A stretch of 64,000 nt of DNA from Nitrospirota bacterium (GCA_963733375.1 CAVTDB010000009.1:128001-192000), one strand, 5' to 3'; counted from the stretch's first letter, positions 4,712 to 30,880 are shown. Numbers and translations are program-made. The notes: a model not told the origin generated them from the letters alone.

Positions 4712-4816
4712 CGTTACTTTTCTTTCGAGAAAGAAAAGTAACACAAAAAAAAGCTGGACTTAAAAACAAATTTAAAAGTTTTTGGCGTTACCTTTTTACC
4801 AAAAAGGTAACGGTTT
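4712..4816. repeat. Dispersed intergenic palindromic repeat (REP/BIME-like), copy 1
   Basis: Hairpin GTTACTTTTCTTTC..GAAAGAAAAGTAAC plus hairpin GTTACCTTTTT..AAAAAGGTAAC; near-identical to 49233-49344. Confidence 0.85.
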
Positions 4817-4820
4817 ATCA

Positions 4821-6022
4821 ATGCAACTTGATTTATCTTTCAGCGGCCCCATTACCGTCTCCGAGCTTACCCGGCGTATCCGGGAAAAGCTGGAGTCCGG
4901 CTTCTCCGACGTATGGATAACCGGCGAAATTTCCGGCCTGCGCATCCCACCCTCCGGCCATATATACTTCACTTTAAAGGACAAGGACGCCCAGATAAAG
5001 GCGGTTTTTTTCCGCTCCGGCAACCGCTATCTGAAGTTCGCGCCGAGGGACGGTATGGAGGTTATCCTGCGGGGCCGGGTGACGGTTTACGACCCGCGCG
5101 GCGAGTACCAGGTAGTCGCGGAATACATGGAGCCGAAAGGCATTGGCGCGCTCCAGCTCGCGTTCTTGCAGCTAAAGGAAAAACTCGAAAAGGAAGGGCT
5201 TTTCGATCAAGTCCCGGAAACGCCCCCTGCCCGCCCACCCGAGGCGCGTCGGAGTCGTAACGTCCCCGTCCGGCGCGGCGATACGGGATATATTAAATGT
5301 CCTCGGCAGGCGCGCGCCCGGCGTGAAAATATTAATCGCTCCGGCGACGGTGCAAGGCGCGTTCGCGCCGGCGGAGATAGCATCCGCGATATCGGAACTA
5401 AATAAGATAGACGGCCTGGACGTCATTATCGTAGGGCGCGGAGGAGGGTCAGTGGAAGACCTGGCCGCTTTCAATACGGAAGTGGTCGCGCGCGCTATCG
5501 CCTCGTCCGACATCCCCGTAATATCCGCCGTCGGGCACGAGACGGACTTTACGATAGCCGATTTTGCCGCCGACTTAAGGGCCCCCACCCCGTCCGCCGC
5601 CGCCGAAGTGGTTGCGAAAAACGAGGAGGATATGGCGGATATTCTCCGTTCGCTTCGCGGCAGGTTAGTTTATGCAGTAGTGCAGGAGCATCGGCGTCTG
5701 CGGGACAGGTTAAATTCCGAGGAACGGGCGCTGATAAACCCGATGAGGCGCTTGCATGACCATGCGCTCCGGCTGGACGAGCTGTCCGGGAAGGCTGATG
5801 TCGGCAGAAGCGCGGTTAATACTCACCTTGAAAAACAAGGCTGTTTCTCTCTCCCGCGCCCTGGCTCTGCTTGAGCCACTCGCGCCCTTGAAGGCCGGTT
5901 TCGCCATCGTGAAGAGCTTTTCCGACGGCCGGATAATAAAGTCGAGAGCCGAGGCAAGGGCCGCGGGCAGGTTGACGCTTCAGTTTGATGACGGAGAAAT
6001 CGACGCCGAAGTAGTGAAATAA
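4821..6022 (+). CDS. xseA: Exodeoxyribonuclease VII large subunit (frameshifted into 3 ORFs)
   Basis: [56 protein letters not shown]. Confidence 0.93.
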
Positions 6023-6192: not shown

Positions 6193-9100
6193 TCAGCAGG
6201 GTGGACGCTGGAGCTGTACGCCGCTCCGCGCCCGCTTCAGGCTACTGGTAACTACGTTGGCAGTTGCGCCGGTCGAATATGTGTGAGCGCCGTCGTGCGA
6301 GAACGCTTTGTAATAATAATGAGTATAGTGAGTTAACGTCCCGTACGTATCCAGCTCGCCGTTCGGGGTGCCGGTGCCGGTGCCGTCATAGACAACCGTA
6401 CCCGTTCCGATGGCGCCTCCCACGGTATACGTCGTGCCGTTCGTCGGCGCCGTGAAGGTGCCGGTGGTATTGCGGAGTATCAGCACGCCCGTGAACGGAG
6501 ACGCCGGGTTTGTCCAGCCCAGCTGTATCCCCCCCGTGGTTGAATATTTCGATGTTGCTGTGAGGGTAACGTTTACCGCGGTGAGGATCACGCCCGTGGT
6601 GTTGGTGAAGGTCGTGACCGTGTAGTTACCGCCGCTGTTGCCGTCGTTGACAGTGTACGTGGCGCACCGACAGCGTCTTGCCCGTCCCGTTCTTGGTGTC
6701 GTAGGTCTCCGTCAGGCCTGTGACCGTGTCGGTGCCTGGAGGCCCGAAACCGTGGGGACTGCGACGGGCGGCGGTGGTGCCGTCGTAGGTCTTGGTGTTG
6801 GTCGCGGCCGTGATGGTCAGAGCGCCTTCGTGATGCGCCCGTGGTGTCGTGACGTCGTGACCGTGTAGTTGCCCCCGCTGTTGCCGTCGTTGACCGTGTA
6901 GGTGGCGACCGACATCGTCTTGCCCGTGCCCACGTTCTGCGTTGTCGTAGGTCTCGCGTCAGGCCGGTGACCGTGTCGCTGCCACAGGTGCCGGTAACCG
7001 TCGGCGTGCCCGTCGCGCGATGGTGCCGTCGTAGATCTTGGTGTTGGCCAGCCGCGGTGATCGTGAAGCGCGCCTTGGTGATCACGCCGGTGGTGTTGGT
7101 GAAGTCGTCACCGTGTAGTTGCCGCCGCTGTTGCCGTCGTTCACCGTGTAGCCGCGGCGACCGACAGCGTCTTGCCCGTGCCCGACGTTCTTGTTGTCAA
7201 AGGTCTCGCCAGGCCGGTGACCGTGTCGGTGCCGTCGAGGCATGCCTGTAACCGTCGAGGACCGCGGCGGCGGCGGTGGTGCCGTTGTAGACCTTGGTGT
7301 TTGTCAGGGCAGTGATGGTGATAGGCGCCTTGTGATGTTGGCCGTCGTTGATGCAGTGGTATTGCCAAGCGTGTAGTTGCCTGCGTCGGCGCCGCCGGTT
7401 ATGCTGATGCCGGTGACGCTGACCGCGATGCCGTTGGCGACGTTCTGGCTGGCAAAGGTTGCGCCGGTGTAGCTTTCCGTGACCACGTCGCTAGAAGATG
7501 GTTATCGGACAGCGTCACGGTCGCCGCCGTACTGCGGTTGTATGTCTTGTTAACACCCGTCGCGGTTACTGTAAGGGTCGCCGCCGTGATGTTGGCAGTC
7601 GTCGTGCCGACGGAAGTCAGGCTGTAGTTGCCAGACGCGGTGCCGGTAAGGCTTAAGCCGCTCCCCGTCACCGTCTTGCCGTTGGCCACGTTCTTGTCGC
7701 TGAATGTCGCCGTGCCGCCCGTCAAGGTGACGTTCGCTGTATCGCCCGCCAATACGCCTGAGAGCGACCTGCCGGTGATGCTTGCCGTGTTCGTGGCGTC
7801 GTAGGTCTTGCCTGCTGGCGGTGATGCTGCCCGTGACGCCCAGCGCGGTAATGTTGGCCGTCGTTGTCGCCGTGGTCTGGGTAAGCGTGTAGTTGCCCGC
7901 CGCCGAGCCGGTAAGGCTGAGGTTGACCGTAACCGTTTTGCCATTGGCCACGCTCGCATCCGAGAATGTCGCCGCGCTGGTGACCAGGGTGACGTTACCC
8001 ACATCGCCGGGCTGTACGCCGACCAGCGCGAGCGTATTGCCGGAGAGTGTGCCGCATTCGTGCCGTCGTAAGTCTTGCCGCTGGCGGCGATGGAACCGGA
8101 GATAGTGAGGTTCCCGGACGACACACTTGCGGTGGGGGCGGTGGTCGCCGGCGTGCTTCCGCCATAAATGTCGGAAGCCGTTATCGTGCAGGTGATGGTC
8201 TTGCCAATCTCGGAGGACGTGAGCGTATAGTCGTTAGCGTCCGCGCCGATGTTCGTCCCGGAAGCAGCCCACTGGTAGTGTAGCGTCACCGGGTCGCCGT
8301 CCGCGTCCGCAGTGCCCGTATCTGCCAGGGTCAGGTTAGTACCGAATGTCACCGAGCCGGTTATTGACGGCGTGCCCGTGAAGGTCGGCGCCGAATTGGA
8401 GGTCCTGTTCCATGAGGCCGGACTCGAGGAGTGACAGGAAGAGGTGCAAGTGCTGGTCCCGCCGTCAAAGGTGAATGCGTTAAGGGATGCCGGGGTCATG
8501 CCCAGGTTGCCCTTGGCGTTGCTGACGTTGGCGTCCGAGACTTCCGTGCCGTCGGAAGCGTGCGGGTAGGCTTTCTCGGTCCCGTTGTCCGCTCTGCCAT
8601 TGCTCCATAAATCATTTGTATTATCAGGATGGCAGGTATGGCATGCGCCGTTGCCGCCGCCTATGCGGGTAATATGGTTGACGTGGTCGCCCGAAAGCGG
8701 AGCCTCGGTGCCGGAAACGCCGGAGCCGTCCGCGTGGCAGGAGTTGCAGTTGAGCATTAAGCCTGCACTGGTGTAATTGGCCCAGCGCGCCGGGTTAGCG
8801 GAGCTTGTGCCCCTGTGACAGGCCACTGTGCAATAACCGGCGCGAGGGGCGTCCTCCATCGAAGAAATGGAATTCGGCCTGTCGCTGACGCCGCCCCGGT
8901 CGGAGGAGTACCTCATGAAGCCCTTCGTCGCCGGCCAGCCGTAGTTGGGGTTATGATAGTCGGGCGCGCTGGATGTAGTCGACGTTGTGGACCACTGCAA
9001 GAATCCGCTCAAGTGGTTCGGATGATCTGCGGCGTGGCAGACCTGGCAGACACCGCGGTTGTTATACGTGACGCCATTGATAACTGTCGTTCCGCTCCAT

Positions 9101-9443
9101 GAATTTCCGCCGATTGTCCCGGATTTGCCCGCACCCGTGGGGTAGCTGGCCGAAGAGTAGTTCGATGGATGCCATGCAGCCCGCGTTCGTTGTCGTTCTG
9201 CGGCAACAGTTTATTCTCGTACCCGGGCGCCGCGCCGGTTGCCCTGGCGTCATACGATACGCTGCCGCTTGAACCGGTCGAGGCATTGTTGAAGATCGTA
9301 CCGTGGCACTGCCCGCAGTTTATGGTAGCGGCGGAGGCGGGTGCTGGCGCTCCCAAGGTCGCCATGACGAATATTACAAGTACAAGAGCTAGGCCAATCG
9401 ACAACCCACGCTTTCTGTAGTTGATTTCGCCGGCGAATGCCAT
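6193..9443 (-). CDS. Secreted six-heme c-type cytochrome fused to an Ig-like domain, ~6 YDG/MBG-type repeats and a C-terminal FN3-like domain (multiple frameshifts)
   Basis: Signal peptide then ATINCGQCH; CQVCH, CTVACH, CNSCH, CHTCH, CTSSCH; APTFTGTPSITG..YQW Ig domain; repeated KTYDGT..NV(A/G)xGKT..GNY(T/S) units; terminal QLGWTNP..GVLILR..YYYKAFSHD. Confidence 0.8.
6595..7330 (-). repeat. Three near-identical ~245-bp tandem coding repeats (YDG-type units)
   Basis: gtcgt(g/c)accgtgtagtt..ccgctgttgccgtcgtt recurs at about 6611, 6854 and 7104. Confidence 0.8.
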
Positions 9444-9601
9444 TTTGCCTCCCAGAGTAAACTTATTAAACGTAAATATTATTTTATTATATATAAAACA
9501 AGCTTAATACTTTGAATATGCTAAAAAAAAAGCTTCACATATTCGGAAATATTATATAAGGCTTTTAGTCAGGAATGTCAAGTAACATGCACAAGAACAT
9601 G

Positions 9602-10003
9602 TTAGCCGTCTACCTTTTTTATCACGAGGCCGGTCGGCAATATGACAAGTTTATGCTCTACGCCCGTAACTACCTTGGCTTCATAAGAATACTGGTAGTC
9701 TTGGGATGACCCTTTGGGCACTACCTGGCCTCTGAAATTGAAATCTTTAAGTGCGGTCCTTCTGACAGTCACATAGCCTTTTATCATGTAGTAAGGCTTT
9801 TTCGCCCCAGGTTCGTTTTGATTGGTATGTTCGTACGTTATTGTTACAATACTGGTAGAAAGCGGCCGGGCGGGGTCTTTTAACGTCAGAACCGACCACA
9901 GCGTATAATAGACCGCTTTGTCGGCCTTTTGCTCATTGGATACGCACCCGGCCAACAGGGCAATCAAGACCACCGAAAATATAATTAGAACTATTTTTTT
10001 CAT
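9602..10003 (-). CDS. Hypothetical lipoprotein
   Basis: MKKIVLIIFSVVLIALLAG-C lipobox; intact 133-aa ORF inside the cytochrome island. Confidence 0.75.
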   Translation of the reverse strand: MKKIVLIIFSVVLIALLAGCVSNEQKADKAVYYTLWSVLTLKDPARPLSTSIVTITYEHTNQNEPGAKKPYYMIKGYVTVRRTALKDFNFRGQVVPKGSSQDYQYSYEAKVVTGVEHKLVILPTGLVIKKVDG

Positions 10004-10038
10004 CGTACTCGCTTCGTTTAATTATTTCTGGTAAAACC

Positions 10039-10068
10039 GAACATCTGCCGGTACACCGGCAGATGTTC
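10039..10068 (-). terminator. Perfect hairpin, probable terminator or mRNA stabiliser
   Basis: GAACATCTGCCGGT-AC-ACCGGCAGATGTTC downstream of the 10116-11407 gene. Confidence 0.6.
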
Positions 10069-10115
10069 TATTGCTTAATTAGCTTTGTCCCGTCCAGACG
10101 ATACGGCCCGCATTG

Positions 10116-11407
10116 TTACATCAGGGACCAGCTGCCTTCCCCGCCAACGGTATGACAACCGGCCACGCCGTCACTGGGACTGCATGTGTACGTGCTGGAA
10201 TTGTAATTCACGTCCGTATTAATGTAGGCGCCGTCCGAGCCAACCGGCAGGGTAAGCCCAGACGAACCGTCCGCCCGCTGGTGATCGCTGAGGCCGCCTG
10301 TATTGGGGTGGCAGTCAGCACACCCTGCCGCAGTGAGTGTAGAGCTTGTCGCAAGGTCGAAGACGTGGTAGTTGTGCCCTCCGACCAGCGCGCCGACGGT
10401 GATACCGTCGTTTTCTACAGAGCCGTCACTGTGGCACATGTTGCAGGACACGCTGCCGTTCCATTTTTTCGGTGCATTAGGTACGGTATGTGAATTTAAA
10501 TATTCATTCCTCGGGTGGCATTTGCTGACGCAAGTCGTACTGGTGCCGTTTTTTACCGCCGAGGAAATATTGTTCATAAGCACGACGTTGTTATCAGGGT
10601 TTGGATGTTAGTGCCGTCCGAGGCGTGCGGGTAAGCCTTGACGCTGCCGTCGTCTATGGACGCCCTGCCTTGGCTAGTATTGTCCGAGTGGCAGTTCACG
10701 CATCCGGCGTCGTTCGCCGAGTTCATCGCAACAAAGCCGCCTGGCAAGATGGCGGTGGATCCCAGATGTCCCGGATGATTGCCGGACAAGTCAGATTCGG
10801 AGCCGGACTTGCCGTTAACGTCCGCATGGCAGCTATTACAGGTCAGCCTCGCGACGGAGGAGGTGTAGTTGTTCCACTTCGCGGAGTTAGTGGCAGTCGT
10901 ACCCTTATGACAGGCCTTCGTGCAGGTCGCCGTCCCGTCCATAAGAGCGATGTTGATGCCGTTTGCACTGCTCCCGGTGCCCGTGACATTGCCTTTCAAC
11001 CCGACTGAACTGACTTTTTGCGCGCCACTGGGCGACATGCCGGAGAACGTAACAAAGCCGCTTTCATGGCTGTACTGGTTGTGGCAGTATTTGCAGTTGC
11101 CCCTGGTTGAACCGTTCATCCCGTAAGTCGCTGAGGAGTAGTTCATGTGAATGCCGTGCAGGCCGCGGCCCATTCCGCCTGTTATATTGTTGTACTGCGG
11201 AGTATTGATATCCTCGTAGGGTTTTACGCCTGGCATAAGAGATAGCGAACCATCGGCGTTATTTATGTAGGCCCCGTGACATTGACCGCAACCTATGGTC
11301 GCGGCGCCCGCCGCCCCTGCCAGCATTCCGGATAAAGCCAGCATCAGGAGAAACGCAAGCACACCTGCCGCCAACCTACGACTTTTCGCATCGATCTGAT
11401 AGTTCAT
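10116..11407 (-). CDS. Secreted multiheme c-type cytochrome, ~9 heme motifs (frameshift near 10590)
   Basis: Signal peptide, ATIGCGQCH, CKYCH, CTKACH, CNSCH, CVNCH, CVSKCH, CNMCH, CADCH, CSPSDGVAGCH. Confidence 0.85.
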
Positions 11408-11515
11408 GGGACTTCCTTTTTAGGATTATTAAGTTTACGGCCCTGTATTCCTTAAAAGATGCGCAAGACTTGCAATACCCTCGCTCCTCTTGCGCACCCT
11501 CTGAGAAGTATACCT

Positions 11516-11541
11516 GGGCCCCGCCTATAGAGGCGGGACCC
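11516..11541 (-). terminator. GC-rich intergenic hairpin
   Basis: GGGCCCCGCCT-ATAG-AGGCGGGACCC after the stop at 11564. Confidence 0.5.
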
Positions 11542-11563
11542 GTTGGCTGAATTTAAGTACAGT

Positions 11564-13542
11564 TTAGTACCAGTTCGGCGTGGTCCTGTTGAAGTGGCAC
11601 TTCGCGTTGGAGCACTGCGCCGAGGAGCCGACCGTGTGGTTGATCACGGAGAAGCCCGTGGCAGCTTTGCTCTGTATGCGGGTGTCAGCTCCGGTGTACG
11701 CCTGCGCGACGGTGACTTTGTCCATGTGCGTGATGCCGTAGTGGCACTTGCCGCACTTGGTCGTGTCACCCGTTACGCCCGCGTAGGTGTCGCCCTTCGC
11801 ATTGTACGCGCCGGCTCTGCTGAGGTGCTTCAACTGGCCAGCCAGACCAAGTACGCTGGTAGCCTCGTTGAAGGCGGACCTGACAGAGTGACCGTTCGTG
11901 GACGCCCAGTCAAGAGCAGCGCCAGGATACTCGTGGCAGGTCGCGCAGCCGGTTCCACCACCACCAGCTATCAACGTCTCCAGGGTCTCCTGCGTATTGA
12001 CGCTGTCCCAGAGCGGGGACGTGATTACGTGGCATCTGTTCGTGCAGGTGCCGTGGGTCGTAATCGTACCAGCGCCCGACCAATTCGTACCGGACTTGTT
12101 GGTAAACGTGCTGGGCCCGATACCGGCGGCGCCGTTCAGGACCGGCAGCTGGATGATGTTAACCACGCCAAGGGCGTTCGTATGCAGGCCGGTATAGACC
12201 ACGTGGCAGTCGTTGCAGGACGGAAGTCCGTGCGCGCCAACTCCTATCTTGTACGCAGAGATCTCCTCGAAGTGGAGACTGTGTGCGAAGGACAGCGGCC
12301 TGGTCGCGCTCTGATTGGCAGCCAAGGTAGCAGTGTGGTTGTGGCAAGCCTCGCAACCCGTGCTGGTGCCGCCCGTCGGCGCCGCGCCATTCCACGCCGG
12401 GTTGTTCAGCATCTTGACCGACTTGTTGAAGTGACAGTTGTTGGTGCAGCCGATGTTACCGGAGTTACGGTCGGTTGCGGACGCTACGCTCGGCGTCGCA
12501 CTGGTCGTATTCGTCCAGAGGCCGGTTATCATGCCGCCAACAACCGCGTTCGCGGACACGACATTGGTACCGTCGGTGGCGTGCGGGTAGGCCTTACCGT
12601 AGCCGTTAGTGCCGTGACGCCCCAGTCAAGCAACCTTCCATTAACACCCCTGACGAGGGTCTCCGGGCCGCCCTGGCCCCTGTTGTCCGGATGGCAGGCC
12701 TGGCAGACGGCGTTGGCAACGCCTGGTTGCTGCTGACGTCCACGCTGTTCTGCAGGCGGACAGTGGTGCCGTTTACGAAGATCTTGATGCCGCCGGTTCC
12801 AGGCGCGGCAAATTCGCTGCTCGAACCGCCCAGGGTCAGGTGAGGGTTATGGCCGTAGCTGGCCGGGGCAGACAGGCCATAGCCTGCGCCGGAGCCACCG
12901 ACATTGGTGGCGTCGCCGTGGCAGGAATTACAAGTCAGCTTTACGGAAGCCGAGGTGTAGTTGCCCCACGGAGCGGGGTTCGTTGCTGTGGTGCCCTTGT
13001 GGCAAGCCGGGGTACAAGTACCGGTGCGCGGCGCGGTCTCCATCGAGGTGAGGAGTTCGGCCTGATGCTCATGCCGCCCTGGTCGGAGTAGTACAGCAGG
13101 ACCTTGAGGGGAATGCCGGGGTTGAGTATCCATCGCTCCGCCGGAGGTGCTGTAGTCGCGGTCGATGGTGGACCACTGCAGGAAGCCGCTCTCATGGTTC
13201 GGTGGTTGTCAGCGTGGCAATTACCGCATACGCCGCTGCCATTCGTGCTGTTGCCCGGGCCATAGGTCACCGAAAAGTAGTTCATGTGGATGCCGTGCAG
13301 TCCACGGTCGTTGTCGTACGACGGCGTGAGGTGGTCTGATACGCGGGAACCGCCCTGGGGTCGCTCGAGGGCAGGGCCCTTGCGTCAACAGACATGCTGC
13401 CGCTTGCGCCGGTCGAAGCGTTGTTGAAGATCGCACCATGGCACTCGCCGCAGCTTATGGTCGCTGCGGAGGCCATCCCGGCCAGACCCAGCGTCAGGCC
13501 CAAGGCCATGACCACGGTCAATAACATTTTCATTTTACTCAT
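11564..13542 (-). CDS. Secreted multiheme c-type cytochrome, ~12 heme motifs (several frameshifts)
   Basis: GGAGG RBS, signal peptide, ATISCGECH, CGNCH, CTPACH, CNSCH, CQACH, CTNNCH, CEACH, CNDCH, CTNRCH, CATCH, CGKCH, CSNAKCH; ends TPNWY. Confidence 0.85.
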
Positions 13543-13605
13543 TTCAAAACCTCCAGTTAGTAAAAAAACTCCAACAGACAATGAACGACAAAAAAACCCT
13601 TTTTA

Positions 13606-13706
13606 CCCCTTTTTCATCACCCCTTTCATATTGTTGATTTTTGTTAACTCCATTTCACCTTTAACACAGTTCGGAGTATTTTCCTCCCCTTTTTCATCAC
13701 CCCTTT
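13606..13706. repeat. Perfect 21-bp direct repeat CCCCTTTTTCATCACCCCTTT x2, 80 bp apart
   Basis: Copies at 13606-13626 and 13686-13706 in the intergenic spacer. Confidence 0.85.
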
Positions 13707-13729
13707 ACAATCAAAGATTTTTATTATCA

Positions 13730-15924
13730 CTAATACCAGTTCGGGGTCTCCCTGTCGAAGTGGCACGTGACATGGTAGCACTGCGCGGTCGCCTTGAACG
13801 AATTACTGCTGACAATGAAGTCGACTTCTCGAGGCCCCGTTCCCGTCGGGGCCACTAGATAGTCTCGTTCGTGTGGTCTCTCGCGCTCGCCAGGTGGCAC
13901 TTCCCGCACAGGTTCTTATCTTCGTCACGTTGGGGAGGTATCCTTGTACGTGTCGTAGGCCGAGGCGGCGTTTAAATGCTTGATTGCGCCGGATGTGGCG
14001 TTAATTACGCCGGTGCCCAGGAGAGTGATGGTGCTCACTTGATCGGAGGAGGACCTGACGCAGTGGCCGTTTGTAGTTGGCCAGTCGTTAGGCGGGGAGC
14101 CGGGATATTCATGGCAGGTGTCGCAGGCCAGGCCGTAGGGTCCGTTGCCGGGGTTCCCCGCCCAAGCCTGGTGCCAGTCGTGTTATGGCATGCCACGTTG
14201 GTGCAGGTGTCGTCGGCGGTATTAACTTTGCCTATCGTGCCGCCGTCGTAGAATGTCCCCCCGTTCCAATAGGTCGTGGAAGAGGTATCGATATTGGCGG
14301 TGTCCAGTCCCTCCGGATGCGTAGTGCCGGGCTTGTTCCCGTGGCAAGTCTGGCAGATGGCGAGCCCAGACAGGCCGGGGAACTTGTTCGGGATAAAGAT
14401 CGGGAAATGAGCGGCGAGTTGCCGGTATCGTTGTTCAAGCCAGCGGGCCCGTATACGCCGCCGACGCCCGGCGGGAAGCCGTGGCAGGCGTCGCAGGTGC
14501 CGCCACTCGACTGGAAGCCGTCGATGCTTGTGGCAGATCGGTGCAGTCACCTCCGGTGTTGTGGCCCATGCCGGTCCAGTCGTTTCCGCATGTGGTTGGC
14601 TGTCACCGTATGGCAGACCTCGCAGATGCCGAAGCCTGTGTCCGGGCCGAAGCCCGGCGCCGGTGAAGTTCTGGAAATTAACGGCCTTGCCGTTTATCAC
14701 GTTCTTGATGAGCATTATATTGGTTGAGTTATGCGTGGTATGGCAGTCAAGGGATTCCGTCGCCGGTTCGGTGTTGGCCGTATGCAGATCGCGCCGTCAT
14801 GTATATTTACCGAACCGGACTGAGACGAATAGCCGTTCAAAACCGTCTTATGACAGTCGCTGCACAGCGCCGTGCCGCTTGACTCCCTCATCAACTGACC
14901 GTTATTCGAAGGGGCGTTATGCTGTTTATGGCAGGAGGTGCAGTAAACCTTGCCGCCCTCTATGTATGCGTTCCCTTGTGCCTGAGGCGTGTTGGTGTTA
15001 TTCAGGCCATTGGTATAGCCGAACAGAGCACTCCGGGTGGTTGCTCGTGACGCCGGTTCCGGGCGCATGGCTGGCTGCCAGCGACACGCGGTCGGCATGG
15101 CAGTCCACGCAGACGGCGTTGGCGGTGTTGTCGTCCCTCAGATAGGGCTCGCCGATATCAACGTTAATATAGGTGTTGCCGGGCTGGGCAATATTGAAGA
15201 CTACCAGGGCGGAGTTGTTCTTGTACGTGTACTCGGAGGGATCTACCAGAAACTGCTTCTTGGTCCGGCTGTTCGTAATCGTCGGCTGGTATCCGTTTCT
15301 GTAAACCCTTATATATTGGGCAAGGTATTGCTTGGTCGATGAAACGCTGATCTGATACCTTTTATTGTCTGATGTGTTGGTAGCGGCATAGTTGAAATTC
15401 TCAACGGTTTTCTTCATGGCCTGGTGGCAGGTCTGGCAGCGGACTCTCATAGGAAGTATTGTTAGGAGCAAGGACTCATATGGGCCGTGCCGTCGATGAT
15501 GTTCCCGTTGTAGTCCGTCTTGAAGCCCGACAGGGTCGGAATTCTCGTCCCGGCAGTCCCTATCACGCCGTTCCAGCTATGGGAATTGCCCATGGACGTG
15601 GCGTTTATGAGGATTATTCCAGTGACGTTCAGGTATTTGTTGGTGGAGGCCGTCCCCGGGTTCTTCTGGTGCGCCTCGCCCGCCAGTTGTGGCAGGACAG
15701 GCAGAAGCCGGTATAATCGGTGGCGAGGCTGTCCTCTATGTCACTTGGCAAAAATGTGCTCTTCGGGATGGAGTGGCAGGCCGCTCCCCCGCCGTTGTTG
15801 CACGAGTTATCGGTATAGCCAGGGCGGTAATCCCTGTGGGGGCTGTCGGCCGCCCTGGCTGAGCCATCAGCGCCATTATCAACACCGCAAGCGCTACCAC
15901 CACTGAGAATAAGGTCTTTTTCAT
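13730..15924 (-). CDS. Secreted multiheme c-type cytochrome, roughly 14-15 heme motifs including doubled-CXXCH-type modules (many frameshifts)
   Basis: Signal peptide MKKTLFSVVVALAVL; CNNGGGAACH, CLSCH, CQTCH, CVDCH, CTSCH, CSDCH, CEVCH, CDACH, CQTCH, CTNVACH, CDTCH, CGKCH, CYHVTCH; ends ETPNWY. Confidence 0.82.
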
Positions 15925-16103
15925 ATTCCACACCACCTTTTGTAAGAGTTAATCCTTATAAACATAAATGCCTGAAAATACTATATTTTTTAAATTTAAA
16001 TCCGGATGATTCCTCTTAAAAAGCTCAGGTCTATTATGTATAAAATAAAATAAAACACTTTATAGCAAAATACACAAAGACCTGATATTTCAACGATTTA
16101 TAA

Positions 16104-16397: not shown

Positions 16398-17066
16398 CTA
16401 ACGGCCAGCGTCCAGCACCACGAACCCTTTCCTTATCGCGTACTTTACGAGTCCCGCCGTATCGTGTATATCGAGCTTGCTCATAATATGCGCCCTGTGG
16501 GTCTCTACCGTTTTTACGCTTATATTCATAAGGTTACCAATTTCATTATAACTATAGCAAACCGCGATAAGCTGAAGGACTTCCTTCTCGCGGTTCGTCA
16601 GCTTGTCCGGTTCTCCCCTGGTCTTTTTATCCTCGTCTTCCCGCAGGTAGCTGTCCATGATCTTTCTGGAGATGACTGGAGAGAAGTAAGGGTTTCCGCT
16701 ATGGACAGACCGTATCGCCGTTATCAGCTCGCTTGCGGAGGCGTCCTTGATTAAATACCCGGAGGCGCCGGATTTGAGTATCTGGAAGACGTATTCCTCG
16801 TCTTTGTACATGGTAAGGGCAAGCACCTTCACGTCCGGGTTAAATCTCTTTATCTGTCTTGTCGCCTCAAGGCCGTTCAGTATGGGCATGGCGATATCCA
16901 TTATAACGACGTCCGGGGCAAGCTCCTGGGCCTTTTTGGCCGCTTCGCGCCCGTTCTCGGCCTCTCCGACGACCTGAAGGCCGTCCTGCGCCTCCAGAAG
17001 TGCGCGGAGCCCCTGCCTGAAAATCGTATGGTCGTCGACGATCAGAATCCTTATGTTTTCTTCCAT
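16398..17066 (-). CDS. NarL/LuxR-family response regulator
   Basis: ILIVDDH, MDIAMP receiver; LTNREKEVLQL..ISVKTVETHR HTH. Confidence 0.95.
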   Translation of the reverse strand: MEENIRILIVDDHTIFRQGLRALLEAQDGLQVVGEAENGREAAKKAQELAPDVVIMDIAMPILNGLEATRQIKRFNPDVKVLALTMYKDEEYVFQILKSGASGYLIKDASASELITAIRSVHSGNPYFSPVISRKIMDSYLREDEDKKTRGEPDKLTNREKEVLQLIAVCYSYNEIGNLMNISVKTVETHRAHIMSKLDIHDTAGLVKYAIRKGFVVLDAGR

Positions 17067-18252: not shown

Positions 18253-19229
18253 TCAATCTTCATCTCCCAGAAGTTCGAGGGCCTCGTTCGCCTTTGTCCG
18301 CACGCCGTCCGATTCGTAAACGTCCCCGGATATTTCCCGGAGCTGGCGCGCCGCATCCTTAAGCCGCAGGTTCTCTATCAGGTCGATCGCCTGCCAGCGA
18401 ACGCGCTCGCTGGCCGATTTAAGCTGGGCGATGAGCGGCTCGCCGATCCTGGGGTCCGTCGAATACTTCAGGGCTTTTATGGCGTTTAATATGACGCTGT
18501 CGTCCTTCTCGAAGTTAAGCACGTTGATGAGCGGCTCTACCGCCTTATCGCTTTCAAAAAGGCCCGCGGCCTCCGCCGCCGCCGCGCGCACCGAGGGGTT
18601 CTTATCGCCAGATAGCGCCGCGAGAAGAGGGTCCAGGGACTTATCCCCTTTATCTCCCCGAGGACGGTCGCCGCGGCCGTGCGCACTTCATAGCTTTCGT
18701 CTTTTTTCAGCGCCTGGATAAGCGCGTCTTGAAGAGCCTCGTCCTGGTGAAGCGGGTCCGGGTACCCCTCTCCGGGCTTTCCCAAGGACTGCGCCGCGTA
18801 CTGCCGCACGCGGGGCGAGGGGTCTGTCAACATGGCGTTTATGAGGGTCTTTTCCCCGCTCGCGTCCCAGAGACCGGACAGGGCCTCCGCCGCGCTCTGG
18901 CGTACCTCGCCGCTTTCGTCTTTCAGCGCCTTCAGATACGCCGGCATGGCCTGATTGTCCGATATCACGAGGAGCGCGCCCAGCGCGGCCAGCCTGACGT
19001 TCTCGTCTTTATCTCCAACCAGCATGGCCGAGAGAGCCGGGACGGCCGATTTCTCCTTCATGTCGCCCAGGCTCCTTGCCGCCGCCGCCCGCACCGCCGG
19101 GTCCGGGTCCTTCGTCGCCCCTGTCAACGCGGAGAGCGTTTCGGCCGTATGCGCGTCGCCCACGTCCGCATATGCCGCCGCGGAAACCAGGAGTATCAAA
19201 AGAGACAGGACGAATGACAACTTCTTCAT
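18253..19229 (-). CDS. Exported HEAT-repeat protein (frameshift)
   Basis: Signal peptide AAAYA-D; repeated D(P/E)xxxVRxAAAxxLG units. Confidence 0.8.
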
Positions 19230-19230
19230 A

Positions 19231-22200
19231 TCAGCCTTCTATTTTTTTCAGGGCCTTTTTCGCCTGAGGGGCCTTCACGCCGTCCGGATACGCGTCGAGA
19301 TATTTTTATATGCCGCCGCCGCCTTGTCCTTCTCGCCCAGACGCGCGTAGCTCTCCGCCACCTTGAGCATGGAGTCGGCCCTGTACGGGTTCTCTCCGAG
19401 TATCAGGCATCCCGTGTACGCGATTATCGCGGACTTGAAATCCGATTTTGCCTCCGAACATTCCCCGGAGATATAAAAACCCTTAGCCCGGACATCGAGG
19501 GTCTGGGAATGGTCCCCCGCCTTGTCCAGACAGGCGATTGCCTCGTCGTATTTCTTCTGCTCGAAGAAGGCCTCCCCCTTGCCGACCAGCGCCTCTCCGG
19601 CGAAATCGTTGTCCAGCGACGCGGTGTCGAATTCAGGCGCAGGCCTCAGGCCATTTTCCGGCTTTCGCCAGAAGCTTTCCCGCGTGCAGGGCCGAAGGGG
19701 CCCTCAGCCGCCCGCCCGCCGCCTCCGCGTCCAGGTAATCCTTTACGGCTTCGTCGTTCCTGTTCAACGCTTCGAGGGCCTCTCCCAGTTGAAAACAGGC
19801 GTCGGCCTTCAACGAACTGTCCTGGTTCAGACTGAGGAACCTCGCGAAAGCGTCCGCGGCCTCAGTGTTGTCGTTCGCGGCCATGCCATACTCGCCAACC
19901 TTGTACCAGGCGTCCGCCGCATGGGGGCCGTCCGGATATTTTATTGCCAACGACTTGAACGCCTCTTCGGCGTCCGCCGTCCGTTCCAGCTTTTCAAGAC
20001 CCCAGGCCCGCCCGTACTCCGCCTCCGGCAAGAGCTTATCCGTCTGATATTTCGAAATGAAAGACTCGTACGCATCGAGCGCGTCCTGGTATTTCTTCAG
20101 GTTATAGCAGCTGTCCGCATACCAGTAGAGCGCGCCGGGCGAAAGCTCCGGGTCCTGGGAGCCGGCTACCTTCTTCAGGCCCTCGGCAGCCGCCTCGTAG
20201 TCCTTCAGGTTCACCGCCGAAAGCGCCGCGAAATAACGCGCCTTCATTTCATCGGCGCTGCCGGGATAGCTCTGGACGAACTGGTCAAAAAGTTTTTTCG
20301 CATCGGCGAACTGCGACTGGTTGAACTTCAAGAAGGCCTGCTGGAATGCCGCTTCCTGGGCAAGGTCGCCGGAGCCGCCCTTTTTGAGCTGGTCGAGCAG
20401 GGCCTGCGCCTGTGCCTGGTCGCCCGTCGCCGTCATGGCCTTTGCGAGCGCGAGCTTCGCCCGGTTCCCGACGTCGCCCGAAGGGTCGCTGTCCGCGACC
20501 GACTTCAGGAGCGCCGCGCCTTTATCCGTCTCGCCCTGCTGGATCAGTATAAGGCCCCTCTGGTAATCCGCCTCTTTCGCCAGCGGGTCTTTGGGGTTCG
20601 CCTTCGAGAACATCCGCGAAGCCGCGCTTCCGCGTCCTTCGCGTTATTCAGCTTCAGCTCCGTCCAAGCCAGGGCGTATACCGCCTTCCTGGCGGGCTCC
20701 GCACCCGGTATTTCGCCAGCACGTCTTTGTACCGGGCTTCGGCTTCCGCGTATTTTCCCTGGTCGTACATCGCCTCGCCCGCGTCGAGCACGGCTTCCGG
20801 GACGAGCGAGCCGTCTTTCGCCTCCGCCGCGAGCTTGTCGAACGCGTCGAGGACGCCTGGTACTCCTTCAGCCCCATCAGCGACCATGCAAGGCCGTACA
20901 GGGCCTGGTCGCTGTGCGCCCCCGTCTGGGATATTTCTGGAGGTAGCTCGAAACAACTTTCCTTCGCCTTCGGATAGTCCTTGGCCCCGTAGCAGGATTC
21001 CGCCAGCCCGAAGAGCCCCTTCTCCTGATATTCCGGGGAGGAAGTCTGCGAAAGAAGAGCCGTAAAACCCTGGGCGGCCTGCGGGAAGTTTTCCTGCTCC
21101 AGGTAGTTCCGCCCTATGCCGAAGAGCGCTTCGGACTTGTTCGGGCTGTCCGGGTGATTCTTCAGCAGCCTTTCAGTACGTGTCTATGGCCTTATACAGC
21201 TCTTCGTGCCGCTCGTACGCCTCGGCCATCCCCAGCAGGGCGTCCTGGGCCAGAGGGTTCGTCCGGTATTTGTCCGCTATCTCCTCGAAGCCGGATATCG
21301 CGGGCGGGTAATCGCCAAGGTGCAGCTTGCACTGACGCACAGTAGGTTTTTCACCTCGACGCTATCCGCGATTCCTGACCCTGATGCTCCCCATCATCTC
21401 CACAAGGGCCTGCTCGGCCTCCTTGAACATCTTTGCCTGGTAATACGCCCAGGCCAGGTCGTACCTCGCGGTCTTTATGTCGGCTGGGTCCTTCGCCTTG
21501 GCGAGCGCCCGTTTGTACGCGTCCGCGGCCTGCTCGTAGTTCTTCATCCTGGCCCTTGCCTCGCCCAGCTGCATGCACGCCGTCACGGCGAGGTTGCCGA
21601 ATCCGGATACTCGTCCACCAGCCTTCCGAAGTTCTCCGCGGCCTCCTGCATGTCCCCAAGTTTAAAGCATCACAGCTCAGGCCGTAGAGGTCATTGGTCC
21701 CGTTCCTGGGCGTCCGGATATTTGGCAAGGATGCCGGTATATTTCCTTTTTCGCCTTCACGTAGTCTTTCTTCTGGTAATAGCTTTCCGCTTCGCGGGAC
21801 TCCGCCTTCCGGCAGCAGCTTGCTCGCGGCGTATTGATTGATGAACATGTCGTACTGTTTTATCGCGTCATCGAAAGAGCCCGTCTTGAAATAAGCATGA
21901 GACAAACCCAGCCTCGCGGCGGGGGCGTCCTCCGAATCCGGGGACTTCCGGAGGGATTCATCCAAGCGAGACTCTTCGCCTGCTCGTAATTCCCTACCCA
22001 GGAAATCGGCCTCGGCTATCCTGAACGCGGATTTTTCCCCGTACTTTCCCTGCGGGTAACTCGCCAAGCACGTGAGGAAATAACCCCTGGCCTTGGCGAA
22101 ATCGCCTTTCTGCACGTAACTCTCACCCGCCATGAAATTGCATTCCATCGCCTTGGGGCTGTCCGGGAACTTCGATACGGCCATGCCGAAGGCCTCCGCC

Positions 22201-22670
22201 GCCTTTTCGAAATCGCCGAGTTTAATATAGCTGTGCCCGGTCATATACAGCGCGTCACCGCGGATTTTTTATCGGGGTAGTGCGCGAAGGAAAGCCTTGT
22301 ACGCCTCCACCGCCTTCTCGTATTCCTTGAGGATATAATGGCAGTCTCCAAGGCGGAGCTTCGCGTCCGGCGCCTTCTCGGACGCCGGGTACGAGGCAAG
22401 CAGTTTCTCGAAGGTCTTCGAGCGATTCGCGCACCGAGCCCCTGGCGAAATCGGATTCGGCCAGGCCATCAAGGGCGTCGGCGACGTGCCAGTTCCAGCG
22501 GGGAACAAGCCGACGTATTTTTTGAACTGCTCAGCCGCCAGGTCATAGTCCGCGTTCTGATAGAGCTGGACCGCGGTCTTCATGATTTCGTCCGGCGTCT
22601 CGGCACAAACCAGGGTGGCGCTGGCCGCCAGATAAATCGACATCGCCGCAAGGATAAAAAGTTTTTTCAT
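19231..22670 (-). CDS. Large exported tetratricopeptide-repeat protein (BamD/CpoB-like repeats), ~1140 aa, many frameshifts
   Basis: Signal peptide; recurring YP.S...A...(L/I)G...Y units across ORFs 22269-22670, 21351-22244, 20654-20956, 19633-20613; ends KKALKKIEG*. Confidence 0.78.
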
Positions 22671-28318: not shown

Positions 28319-30880
28319 CTATCCGCACTTTGAATAACCGCACGAACTGCATACCACGCAGCCTTCGGCGAAAGAGACCATCGAGCCGCATTCCGGGCAC
28401 TGCGGGCAGTGGTTCAGGAGGTTGTCAGCCGTCAGGCTCTTATCCTCCGTGGTAATCCCCTGCTTTTTTTCGAGCAGGTAGTCCTCCAGCACGGTGGCGA
28501 TGGCGTCCGCGCAGGAGTATATGGTGGAGCCGGAAATCCACGTCGGCGAGGGGCAGCGTATCCCCTTCAACTGGTCGATGATGGACGCCGGTGCACGCCC
28601 GAGCGGAGCGCGAGAGACACGAGTCTGCCAGTGGCCTCCGTCTGGGACGTCGCGCATCCGCCGGATTTGCCCATGCTGGCGAACAGCTCGCACAACCCCT
28701 TCTCGTCCTCGTTTATCGTTACGTACAGCCTGCCGCATCCGGTGTTCACCTGCCTGGTGATGCCTTTCGTGATAAGCGGGCGCGGCCTGGGAATTATCTT
28801 GCCCGGCTCGGGCGGCAGCTTCTGCTCCTGGACTGCCGGGGCCGGCTGGCCCCCTTTGGCCTCCTTGGTCTGCCGGTGGAGAGCACCTGCTCGTCCTTGG
28901 AGCCGTCCCGGTATACGGTGATGCCCTTGCAGCCGAGCTGTAGGCCAGGCGGTAGGCCTCTGCCACGTCCTCGACCGTGGCGTCGTGGGAGAAGTTCATG
29001 GTCTTGGAGACGCCGTTGTCCGATGGTCCTGGAAGGCCGCCTGCATCCGCACGTGCCACTCGGGCGTCGATGTCGTGCGCCGTGACGAAAACCCGGCGCA
29101 CGTCTTCCGGCACCTCGGCCATGTCCGTGCAGGGTGCCGTGCTGCGCGATCCTCTTCATCAGGTCGTCGGAGTAGAAACCGCGCTTCTTCGCGACCGCCT
29201 CGAAATGCGGGTTCACCTCGATGCAGCTCGCCGATGCCCACGACGTGTGGCTGTAGGACACGGCGAAGAGCGGCTCGATCCGCGAGGAGCAGCCGGCGAT
29301 GATGCAGAGCGTGCCGGTGGGGGCGATGGTGGTCACGGTGGCGTTGCGCAGCGGCGGCCGCCGTCCCGGTAGATGCTGCTCGACCAGTTCGGGAACGGTC
29401 CCCGCTCTTCCGCCAGCGCCTCGGACTCGGCCCGGCCTCCGCTGGTGATGAACTCCATCACCTTGTCGGCCAGCCAGGCCGCCTCGCTGTCGTAGGGGAT
29501 GCCGAGCTGGATCAGCAGGTCCGCCCAGCCCATCACCCCCAGACCGATCTTGCGGTTCGCGCTGCGACATCTCCGATATCTCGGGCAGGGGATAGGGGTT
29601 CACCTCGATCACGTCGTCCAGGAAGCGGACCGCCAGTCGGACGCCGCCGCCCAGCTTCTCCCAGTCGACGGCGCCGCCGTCGATCATGCCGGACGCCAGG
29701 TTGATGGAGCCCAGGTTGCAGGCCTCGTGGGCAGCAGCGGCTGCTCGCCGCACGGGTTGGTGGCCTCGATCGTCGTCCAGCTCGGGGCGTCGGGTTGTCG
29801 GCCGGTTCACCCGGTCGATGAAGACCAGCCCGGGCTCGCCGTCCTGCCAGGCGGCCCCACGATCCGGTCGAAGACCTCGCGCGCGACAGCCGGCTCGACC
29901 GACCTTGCCGGTGCGCGGGCTGATAAGGTCGTAGTCCATTCCCTCGTCCACGGCCTCCATGAATTCTCCGTGATGCGCCACGGAGATATTGAAGTTGTTG
30001 ATCCGCCTGTGCCGTCTTGCAGTTGATGAACTCCAGGATGTCCGGATGGTCCACCTTCAGGATCCCCATGTTGGCGCCGCGCCGGGTCCCGCCCTGCTTC
30101 ACGGCCTCGGTGGCCCCGTTGAAGACCCGCATGAAAGAGACCGGGCCGCTGGCGACTCCGCCGGTGGATGCGACCTTGTCGTTCGCGGGGCGAAGCCGCG
30201 AAAAAGAGAAGCCGGTGCCTCCGCCGGACTGGTGGATGAGCGCGGCCCTCTTCATGGCGTCGAAGATGCTCTCCATGGTGTCTTCTACCGGGAGCACGAA
30301 GCAGGCGGAAAGCTGCTGAAGCTCCCGTCCGGCGTTCATCAGGGTCGGCGAGTTCGGCAGGAAATCAAGCCCGATCATCATATCGTAAAACGTGCGGGCA
30401 ACCTCCCCGGCTTCCTTTTCCCCGGAGCCGTAGTTCATCTCCGCGAGGGCGATATTTTCCGCCACCCGGCGGAGCATATCCTCCGGCGTCTCTATTGGAG
30501 TGCCGTCCTCCCCTTTTTTCAGGTATCTTCTTTCGAGGACTTTTATTGCATTGGTATTCAATTGGACTTTCCTTTCATTTATGACGCGGGCGCGGCGCTT
30601 GTGCGTGATACCTGCCGGCACTGCCGGTTCGGGCGCAAGCGTGGCTGAAAATTTCGGGTCAAACGATGCTACCGGCCGCCGGTCAGCCGGTCGCCGGTCC
30701 GCATGGGGCTGTCCTGCCTGAGTCCGGTCTGTCTGGGGCAGGTCTGCTTGAGGCAGGCTCTACCCGAGGCAGGTCTGCCTGCCCGCGAGAGTCCTCGTTT
30801 CCGGACATGTTGAAGAAGTCGTCCTGCCTGTCCTTCCCACTGCCTTCCGAAACTCCCCCGCCAGATTCCTCGAATGCCAT
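28319..30880 (-). CDS. nrdJ: Class II (adenosylcobalamin-dependent) ribonucleotide reductase (many frameshifts)
   Basis: [45 protein letters not shown]-like, [21 protein letters not shown]-like YSCADAIA, C-terminal [14 protein letters not shown]. Confidence 0.93.

Follow-up and report, generated by a model that had tools for sequence, protein, structure and literature searches.

Cytochromes of the CxxxxCH/CxxCH-domain superfamily (TIGR01904/PF09698), which was defined on proteins of Geobacter sulfurreducens, have to our knowledge been catalogued but not studied. Better described are the nanowire cytochromes: in OmcS the first haem motif lies close to the mature N-terminus, and the OmcS filament displays inter-subunit His ligation and haem stacking, while PDB entry 7TFS is the OmcE nanowire of G. 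sulfurreducens. [quoted passage not shown] Finally, the 'wire' cytochromes of the Desulfuromonadia (a 27-haem protein of G. metallireducens, GSU2884/OmcA, OmcH and OmcG) are portrayed in a further study (BMC Genomics 2024, PMC11492766) as predicted extracellular proteins with linear haem chains, encoded outside porin-cytochrome operons.

The window analysed here, i.e., the whole 64-kb stretch of DNA from the genome of an uncultured, sulfur-cycling Nitrospirota bacterium (completeness 81%, contamination 5%), carries on its minus strand at 6193-15931 four co-oriented genes for multihaem c-type cytochromes (g4, g3, g2, g1) together with a small lipoprotein gene. By motif count this region contains 28 CXXCH, ten CX3-5CH and one CX8CH motif, the last at the end of g2, and thus about 39 haem motifs (about six in g1, nine in g2 and twelve each in g3 and g4), close to the roughly 40 given in the initial annotation. 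Since 28 of the 32 CXXCH motifs found in the six frames of the entire window fall into this region and on this strand, their density is far beyond chance. The features are:

16398..17066, minus strand: LuxR/NarL-type response regulator, an open reading frame (ORF) directly upstream of g4 and a conserved neighbour of the cluster
13730..15931, minus strand: g4, 12-haem-type secreted cytochrome without the shared head; at least four frame changes; C-terminus ...CYHVTCHFDRETPNWY-stop
15629-15931, 14998-15471, 14715-15098 and 14035-14715, minus strand: the pieces of g4 obtained by ORF calling
11564..13581, minus strand: g3, head cytochrome with a six-motif tail, about 12 haem motifs; four frame changes; C-terminus ...CSNAKCHFNRTTPNWY-stop
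10116..11407, minus strand: g2, head cytochrome with a three-motif tail; one frame change near 10590-10604; end ...GCHTVGGEGSWSLM-stop
9602..10003, minus strand: 133-aa lipoprotein with lipobox LLAGC, a conserved ORF between g2 and g1
6193..9443, minus strand: g1, head followed by putative Ig-like, YDG-repeat and Fn3-like parts; at least eight frame changes; no C-terminal half unit
~8440-9443, ~8100-8440, ~6590-8050 and 6193-6590, minus strand: head, Ig-like part, YDG repeats and C-terminal Fn3-like part of g1, respectively

The conserved lipoprotein gene, which had been left out of the earlier inventory of the cluster, gave no Pfam match and could be assigned to no known family; it recurs at 58-66% identity in the matching place of L001, L002 and L004, three loci of relatives, and again in their duplicate loci. 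The regulator occupies the identical position in L001, L003, L005 and L006 and is preceded in the latter two by a Cache-GAF-HisKA_3 kinase. In 20 window ORFs and in the neighbouring genes of relatives, Pfam scanning recognised nothing beyond a regulator and aminopeptidase-like, HEAT, TPR and housekeeping genes, and no porin, secretin or other export gene was found beside the cluster in the window.

With respect to the cytochromes themselves, the mature N-termini ATINCGQCHG (g1, 9329), ATIGCGQCHG (g2, 11302) and ATISCGECHG (g3, 13464) directly follow the A-x-A end of a signal peptide on the minus strand, and RGLHGIH, CT.ACH[KR]GT..W.NYTS, CNSCH and AYPHA[ST]DGT each occur there three times, all as originally listed. 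The six-haem head described on the basis of these motifs is indeed present in three genes, but only four of its six motifs are canonical CXXCH, the other two being CX3CH or CX4CH; nor is it common to all four genes, as g4 lacks it and codes for a different 12-haem protein with a TIGR01905 (doubled-CXXCH) domain (31.6 bits). Alignment A1 agrees with the proposed design of a conserved module with interchangeable tails, the head being continued by a YDG-repeat stalk in g1, by three extra motifs in g2 and by six in g3. Also in line with the first description, signal peptides for export are present, none of the three head signal peptides is followed by a lipobox, and Thr, Gly, Asn and Ser make up 41-45% of four cytochrome pieces versus 16-27% of five other window proteins. 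The stalk of g1 matches PF18657 (YDG, 65.6 bits) and includes a 250-nt tandem repeat in three copies (6586-7336), whereas the Ig-like part has 28 matches, exclusively in large adhesin-type proteins, each covering 17-42% of the query and none taking in the haem head. Among the proteins and genomes searched, no other shows the head-plus-stalk architecture, which therefore rests on one error-prone assembly.

Judged by their motifs and profile scores, the proteins are members of the TIGR01904/PF09698 superfamily, and the shared head is a rare, lineage-specific sub-family within it; to speak of a new system, as had been done, is accordingly too strong. The repeated unit consists of CX3-6CH, a conserved Trp and then CXXCH, which is the pairing that characterises TIGR01904. 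The head of g2 scores 30.9 bits against this model, above the curated cut-off of 27 bits, and fragments of g3 and g4 do not attain it (20.9, 18.0 and 22.6 bits), in keeping with their broken ORFs; intact relatives reach 45.8 bits (P0005), 58 and 70.9 bits (L001) and 120.3 bits (the giant protein of L001). A strict rule places W...CXXCH behind 49 of the 94 CX3-6CH motifs that 27 complete relatives contain; ten more are paired by eye at longer spacing, and 27 are the C-terminal ones. Language-model neighbours in the ESM Atlas carry PF09698 together with Cytochrome_C7 and belong mostly to Thermodesulfobacteriota clusters, and the head-family profile also matches members of 1000-4000 aa in up to 23 stretches each. 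For the six-motif head itself (RGLHGIHMNYSS, KAYPHASDGT), a search of 1.84 billion representatives gave 33 clusters with E<=1e-30.

The mapping of head distribution and synteny that had been suggested as a check points in the same direction: all six loci found in genome_contigs are Nitrospirota MAGs, and a sample of 401 genomes from the phylum has the head in seven, every one from a single GTDB family, i.e., beyond the present genome in six of the 11 others of that family and in none of 389 elsewhere in the phylum. Gene order does not vary among the relatives, a regulator being followed by a 12-haem protein, one or more head proteins and further cytochromes, and their cluster ends in a protein of 2200-2400 aa with 21-23 CXXCH motifs, Fn3 and an MtrC/MtrF-like domain (75 bits). 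As the G + C content is ordinary and gene order is conserved in relatives, the term 'island' has to be abandoned; the cluster is most likely vertically inherited and the core of a locus in one uncultured, dsrAB-carrying Nitrospirota family.

What is new here are the complementary half-unit ends of neighbouring genes. At their C-termini the products of g4, g3 and g2 stop exactly with the first half of a CxxxxCH/CxxCH unit, while the second half opens those of g3, g2 and g1, four residues past the signal cleavage site; the last 22 residues of g4 align to positions 18-45, and the C-terminal 24 residues of g3 to positions 16-45, of the 73 positions of the TIGR01904 model. Genome-wide, first-half ends are found only in g4, g3 and g2, and starts with signal, four residues and CG.CH only in g3, g2 and g1, both sets being in gene order. 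The same bookkeeping of end types is seen in L001, L002, L005 and L006, and an unpaired first half forms the C-terminus in 27 of 27 complete relatives. Furthermore, the relative P0025 is an in-frame fusion, free of a signal peptide, of a 12-haem protein to a head protein (...TPTWY-GTIICGQCHG, residues 686-711), and its best TIGR01904 stretch (675-717, model positions 13-63) crosses the fusion junction. The matching ends may allow the proteins to join into an ordered end-to-end chain, or may only mark domain boundaries; together with the one natural in-frame fusion they lend indirect support to the earlier idea of a docking domain.

As to function, we consider it rather likely that the cluster codes for four Sec-exported, vertically inherited cytochromes, interrupted by assembly errors only, which make up the outer section of a route for extracellular electron transfer and probably carry electrons out of the cell. 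Haem would be attached in the periplasm and the proteins then placed at or beyond the outer membrane, where electrons might run along closely spaced haems from the 12-haem protein g4 to the head proteins g3 and g2 and on to the stalk-fused head protein g1, whose adhesin-like stalk would anchor the chain to the surface of a mineral, matrix or partner. The YDG and Fn3-like stalk supports the view that at least one protein, g1, is built like a surface protein, and the fusion of g1 to YDG, Ig-like and Fn3-like domains, the giant Fn3 and MtrC/MtrF-like protein of the relatives and the Thr/Gly/Asn/Ser-rich composition would favour a surface location. With two MtrB/PioB-type porin loci, four secretin loci and many other multihaem clusters elsewhere, the genome appears able to move both electrons and proteins across the outer membrane.

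This reading presupposes functional genes, and the initial annotation had read all four straight through, the frameshifts having gone unnoticed. In fact none of them is an intact ORF, and the 9.7 kb contain 17 or more frame changes due to small indels, which could be taken as the mark of a decaying cluster of four true pseudogenes. We regard this as very improbable, and the genes as real and probably intact in the organism, the breaks most likely being errors of an indel-prone assembly, because housekeeping neighbours are broken as well (xseA, 4782-6022; the ribonucleotide reductase large subunit, 28794-30621), as are the HEAT-repeat and 1139-aa TPR neighbours, and because orthologues in the relative L003, 87% identical over 11 kb, are intact, that of g4 comprising 746 aa (L003:7564-9804). 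In-frame decay is not seen, and the motifs and all haem-ligand residues are kept. The g3 gene can be followed through frames -2/-1/-3/-2/-1 against intact relatives, its full-length relative P0032 (712 aa) sharing its C-terminus, and g2, whose head ORF is unbroken (10574-11407, 277 aa), lacks a single C where the continuous, 85% identical P0001 reads Pro-Asn-Pro. Moreover, single-base indels distinguish independent contigs at several sites within g1 and g4. One of these is 8050, where a g1 frame breaks and contigs from two runs have one extra base; no contig reached the frame breaks of g2 and g3. However, the comparison with L003 shows 45 non-triplet gaps over 7.1 kb of neighbouring genes and 42 over 3.4 kb of cytochrome genes, and since the latter have roughly double the density of frame changes, some true damage may be present. 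A different objection concerns location, as in diderms a Sec signal without lipobox by default yields a periplasmic protein. Because the genome has dsrA (585.8 bits; a dsrB-like gene is also present), the proteins might instead be periplasmic cytochromes for electron transfer or storage in sulfur or sulfate respiration, comparable to high-molecular-weight cytochrome c, which is the best PDB match of profile A3 (1.6e-12), and the cluster has no export gene of its own. Nevertheless, we find this quite unlikely: the HmcA model NF045713, with its cut-off at 400 bits, gives the g3 tail a score of 20.7 bits, and a membrane quinol-oxidising partner (HmcBCDEF-like set) was not seen among the scanned window proteins, while the adhesin-type domains of g1, the Fn3 and MtrC-like domains of the relatives' giant neighbour and the amino acid composition fit a surface protein better. 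No strong match to a known periplasmic enzyme cytochrome emerged, the best PDB hit of the head profile A1 having an E-value of 0.067.

If the proteins act outside the cell, the question arises of how they are arranged. In an ordered chain each C-terminal half unit (CX4-5CH...TPNW[WY]-end) would pair with the N-terminal half (four residues, CG.CHG) of the next protein, so that a complete CxxxxCH/CxxCH unit would be restored at each interface and g4, g3, g2 and g1 would line up as a single wire, about 39 haems long and tipped by an adhesin. The restriction of the end types to the cluster genes, their recurrence in relatives, the C-termini of g3 and g4 stopping at model position 45 and the P0025 fusion all speak for such a chain, which we nevertheless hold to be unlikely: the ends might be no more than the borders of structural domains, the HMM being out of phase with the fold, a strict rule also finds a terminal first half in 24 of 98 large proteins from the wider superfamily, N-end and C-end types show no association in a crude test, the fusion was seen once among 159 retrieved proteins, and the AlphaFold2 models, built without the full haem complement, are too poor for use (pLDDT 38 and 54). 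Its more elaborate form, a self-ordering heteromeric wire of about 39 haems with g4 as starter, g3 and g2 as extenders that could lengthen it without limit and g1 as adhesin-tipped terminator, we deem unlikely; as many giant superfamily members end alike, docking would perhaps be general in TIGR01904 and, if so, a hitherto unnoticed property of that family. Since g3 and g2 carry both end types they could also self-associate, and the head protein might polymerise head-to-tail into micrometre-long conductive filaments of the OmcS/OmcE/OmcZ kind. Similarities exist for profile A4 of the 12-haem family to the OmcE chain 9yuq_N (E 2.6e-6, 29.5 bits, through doubled-CXXCH segments in two stretches, profile positions 277-347 and 424-514, not over the full length) and for A3 to 8e5g_A (2e-4) and the OmcE chain 7tfs_A (0.0097), but they are weak, partial and, for A3, ranked below the generic high-molecular-weight cytochrome. 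The head profile and the single g3 tail sequence match nothing in PDB, no OmcS or OmcZ chain appeared with profiles A1, A3 and A4 and two single sequences at E up to 1-10, and the relatives P0020 and P0023 have Fn3-like domains ahead of the head, which thus lies inside the protein; all of this renders a homopolymer improbable.

Among known systems, MtrCAB and PioAB-type porin-cytochrome conduits have a counterpart in the two MtrB/PioB-family porin loci of the genome, which could feed the cluster; these, however, lie on other contigs, and the MtrC/MtrF domain (PF22113) in g2 remains under its cut-off (23 versus 30 bits), as does TIGR03507 in a g4 piece (17.6 versus 209 bits). With OmcE the cluster shares secreted multihaem subunits, but OmcE is a tetrahaem protein of about 220-230 residues, versus six to 12 motifs here, the match is limited to the two short stretches of the 12-haem family with none in the head family, and the barrel and beta-propeller companions of omcE were not seen among the scanned window ORFs. 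OmcS and OmcZ of Geobacter are likewise exported and haem-rich, OmcS also with an early first haem motif, yet haem numbers and motif types (CX3-5CH here) differ. The closest relationship is to other TIGR01904/PF09698 cytochromes, with which the repeated unit is shared, although the cluster proteins are short (about 430-750 aa) and not giant, the head is confined to one Nitrospirota family and one member is fused to an adhesin stalk; the PDB searches with the head profile and the g3 tail linked no superfamily member to a solved structure. The predicted single-chain wires of the Desulfuromonadia find a parallel in the 21-23-haem giant neighbour of related loci, whereas in the present cluster a comparable haem count is spread not over one polypeptide but over four genes with matching ends.

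The minus strand between positions 6193 and 15931 of the window carries four co-oriented cytochrome genes, here called g4, g3, g2 and g1 in the order of transcription, and one small gene:

15931 to 13730, minus strand: g4, cytochrome
13581 to 11564, minus strand: g3, cytochrome
11407 to 10116, minus strand: g2, cytochrome
10003 to 9602, minus strand: lipoprotein gene, 133 aa
9443 to 6193, minus strand: g1, cytochrome

In a six-frame scan, the minus strand of this region shows 28 CXXCH and 10 CX3-5CH motifs, and with the terminal CX8CH of g2 the total for the cluster comes to about 39, in agreement with the approximately 40 haem motifs counted for the four cytochrome genes in the initial annotation; elsewhere in the 64-kb window there are only four CXXCH in all six frames together. 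Also the sequence motifs named in that annotation were recovered, each of them three times with one copy apiece in g1, g2 and g3, and they form invariant or near-invariant columns when the N-terminal six-motif module common to these three proteins (the head) is aligned with 13 relatives. In g1, the head is followed by an Ig-like domain, whose matches are confined to large adhesin-type proteins, by a stalk of about seven YDG-like repeats with a period of 250 nt (YDG domain, 65.6 bits), and by an Fn3-like domain at the C-terminus. The stretch 9444-9600, directly upstream of g1 and behind the lipoprotein gene, is very AT-rich, which suggests that g1 may have its own promoter.

With respect to family membership, the g2 head belongs to the CxxxxCH/CxxCH-domain c-type cytochromes (TIGR01904, NCBIfam; 30.9 bits at a cut-off of 27), fragments of g3 and g4 score just under the cut-off, and intact relatives reach 45.8-120 bits; g4 additionally contains the doubled-CXXCH domain. 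Neither the g2 head nor its relative P0005 has a structural model in the ESM Atlas, where the neighbours of both fall into clusters with PF09698 and Cytochrome_C7, mostly from Thermodesulfobacteriota. The MccSep sulfur reductase, described as a five-haem selenoprotein (PMC13510729), is unrelated.

The head itself is rare. Among 5.8 billion proteins, 19 relatives of 152-485 aa came up in a word-indexed search, and a head profile run against 1.84 billion cluster representatives gave 389 matches at E<=0.001, of which 155 reach E<=1e-10 and 33 reach E<=1e-30. Past roughly the first 35, the matches are cytochromes of 1000-4000 aa hit in many short stretches, and therefore reflect the common repeat unit and not the head. 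A search of genome contigs yielded six loci (L001 to L006), all six in Nitrospirota MAGs, and in a sample of 401 genomes from the whole phylum seven have the head, all of them in the window's own GTDB family (six of its 11 other members, as against none of the 389 genomes outside). Outside the cluster, some 65 kb ahead of the window (G000:C9:63286-64135, plus strand; G000 being the window's own genome), there is a fourth head-like sequence, which tblastn aligns to the g2 head at 31-39% identity. Literature searches, covering main texts, turned up no description of the head family, nor of TIGR01904 proteins as carriers of split units as outlined below. Overall, g1-g4 are genuine genes for conserved, exported multihaem cytochromes; the superfamily is a known one, and their arrangement is lineage-specific.

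None of the four genes forms a single open frame: compared with intact relatives, g2 shows one frame change and g3 four, while g4 has at least four and g1 at least eight. At the break in g2, one C is missing where the 85% identical relative P0001 has Pro-Asn-Pro. Genes nearby are likewise split across two or more frames:

4782-6022, plus strand: xseA
18253-19229, minus strand: HEAT-repeat protein
19234-22670, minus strand: TPR/BamD-like protein, 1139 aa
28319-30621, minus strand: ribonucleotide reductase large subunit, broken over 28794-30621

In L003, which is 87% identical to window positions 23506-12533, the orthologues are intact, and the non-triplet gaps in this comparison, part of which are alignment noise, number 45 in 7.1 kb of neighbouring genes versus 42 in 3.4 kb of cytochrome genes. 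No RNA run is listed as containing the sequence. Three DNA runs from one study contain 5-22% of the sampled words, in the form of short contigs of low depth; at several sites in g1 and g4 these contigs depart from the window by indels of one base, including an extra base at 8050 in two runs that coincides with a frame break in g1; the breaks in g2 and g3 lie outside the coverage of these contigs. Applying the 10 listed run indels altered some open frames of g1 and g4 and did not restore full genes. We read the frame breaks in g1-g4 as assembly errors, although a few may be genuine lesions, since such breaks are about twice as dense in the cytochrome genes. The assembly (2.39 Mb in 26 contigs, completeness 81%, contamination 5%) seems to suffer a frame-breaking indel roughly every 1-2 kb, so that any ORF-based annotation of it will be fragmented.

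The most interesting lead is provided by the ends of these proteins. Internal units of the family, of which 663 were compared, consist of a first half, CX3-6CH followed after 6-13 residues by Trp, and, 5-7 residues further on, of a second half, CXXCH, often followed by Gly. All 27 complete relatives examined terminate in an unpaired first half, most of them as ...C..V.CH.G..TPNW[WYF]-stop; g4 and g3 end in ...TPNWY-stop and g2 in ...GCHTVGGEGSWSLM-stop. On the 73-position TIGR01904 model, g3 and g4 match with their C-terminal residues at positions 16-45 and 18-45, respectively, so that both proteins terminate ahead of its CXXCH part. In turn, g3, g2 and g1 carry CG.CHG four residues past the A-x-A cleavage site. 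Genome-wide, the first-half (donor) end is found only in g4, g3 and g2, and the CG.CHG-type (acceptor) start only in g3, g2 and g1, both sets following gene order. Donor and acceptor ends are also balanced in related loci, at 3/3 in L001 and 2/2 each in L002, L005 and L006. Moreover, in P0025, found in genome G079 as well, a 12-haem protein and a head protein are fused in frame without a signal peptide (...TPTWY-GTIICGQCHG), and its best TIGR01904 stretch, 675-717, crosses the fusion junction. Taken as short peptides on their own, the N-termini of g1, g2 and g3 and the C-terminus of g2 have no TIGR01904 match.

Gene order is conserved in L001, L002, L005 and L006, where a LuxR-type regulator, accompanied in L005 and L006 by a Cache-GAF histidine kinase, is followed by a roughly 700-aa protein with 12 haems, one or two head proteins, cytochromes of a third class (545-567 aa) and a protein of 2200-2400 aa with 21-23 CXXCH, Fn3 and an MtrC/MtrF-like domain. 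The small lipoprotein recurs in L001, L002 and L004 with 58-66% identity. The third-class cytochromes have the same N-terminal half unit as the head proteins:

L001:11941-13644: third-class cytochrome
L002:12365-14032: third-class cytochrome
L005:11618-13255: third-class cytochrome
L006:11555-13258: third-class cytochrome

Their C-termini (four proteins) share a conserved variant with an extra Cys and His, C..V.CHYG.S.NWDC.P.H. The third class is absent from the window's genome, as is, by tblastn against the whole genome, any counterpart of the giant terminal protein, in place of which the window's cluster ends with the stalk-bearing g1. This head-plus-stalk architecture was found in no other protein or genome searched: 28 matches of 941-2685 aa were all limited to the Ig-like part, and the same-genus genomes G030 and G039 have no colinear g1 orthologue. 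In L002, the cytochrome cluster is closely preceded on its upstream side, at L002:2873-4360, by three small pseudopilin-like genes with prepilin-type N-termini and by a two-component system.

The genome as a whole is unusually cytochrome-rich for 2.4 Mb, with many multihaem clusters besides g1-g4. It encodes dsrA (585.8 bits, over the cut-off) next to a dsrB-like gene at G000:C26:177972-180237 (plus strand), and the organism is of a sulfite-reducing, sulfate-reducing or sulfur-disproportionating Nitrospirota type. Apart from four secretin loci, it contains:

G000:C12:15443-17350, plus strand: MtrB/PioB-family outer-membrane porin gene, split over frames, beside CXXCH-rich bins
G000:C13:137481-139482, minus strand: MtrB/PioB-family outer-membrane porin gene, split over frames, beside CXXCH-rich bins
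G000:C2:15000-36000, minus strand: dense multihaem region, 38 CXXCH in one 3-kb bin
G000:C25:96000-120000, plus strand: dense multihaem region
G000:C26:3000-15000, minus strand: dense multihaem region, TIGR01904 match in a 901-aa open frame

Therefore, parts for the passage of electrons and proteins over the outer membrane are present, and the cluster could be fed through the two MtrB/PioB loci, which are candidate porin-cytochrome conduits; among the window proteins scanned, no porin, secretin or other transfer locus was found beside the cluster. Most likely, the cluster cytochromes make up the outward section of a route for extracellular electron transfer.

How they might be organised there is a separate question, for which the initial annotation had proposed a nanowire or conductive matrix with a docking head. 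An ordered heteromeric chain, in which each donor end meets the acceptor start of the next protein, would account for the match of the ends in number and gene order and has a natural counterpart in the P0025 fusion; the variant C-terminus of the third-class cytochromes could then be a chain cap. However, by a strict rule 24 of 98 larger superfamily members have a like C-terminal end, a crude test on 133 retrieved proteins of at least 300 aa showed no association between N-end and C-end types, and P0020 and P0023 carry the head internally, behind Fn3-like domains. We consider such a chain rather improbable at present, and the matching ends may be mere domain boundaries. Complex prediction with the g2 head (36-277), the g3 C-terminal module (195-331) and four haems gave no answer, with scores of 0.01 and 0.00, and speaks neither for nor against docking.

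An OmcS-like homopolymer appears more doubtful still. Neither OmcS nor OmcZ appeared in PDB searches with cluster profiles and sequences; the head profile reached a best E of 0.067 and the g3 tail alone had no match in the PDB. A broader profile retrieved generic multihaem proteins, i.e. high-molecular-weight cytochrome c (1.6e-12), octahaem nitrite reductases, 8e5g_A (2e-4) and 7tfs_A (0.0097). A profile of the 12-haem, g4-type proteins matched 9yuq_N at E 2.6e-6, confined to two short stretches; 9YUQ is given in the data-availability statement of PMC13712944 as the OmcE nanowire bundle of D. soudanensis. AlphaFold2 models of the g2 head (pLDDT 37.9 with 14 sequences, 54.0 with 46) are too low for interpretation, and Foldseek with the latter, low-confidence model found no PDB match at E<=0.001.

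If the end rule marks no real contacts, the region simply adds a further member to a catalogued family, and its assembly is in need of polishing. If it does, sequence alone could suffice to predict haem wires made of several proteins. The rule is simple and open to bench tests: a C-terminal half unit and its complementary half four residues past signal cleavage, matched by number and gene order. The cluster bears on how uncultured bacteria organise their very numerous and diverse extracellular multihaem cytochromes, and connects extracellular electron transfer with a sulfur-cycling Nitrospirota lineage from soil, sediment and groundwater. To our knowledge, cytochrome nanowires are known only in a few families and are homopolymers throughout; compared with an OmcS-like homopolymer, the matching ends favour an ordered heteromeric chain.
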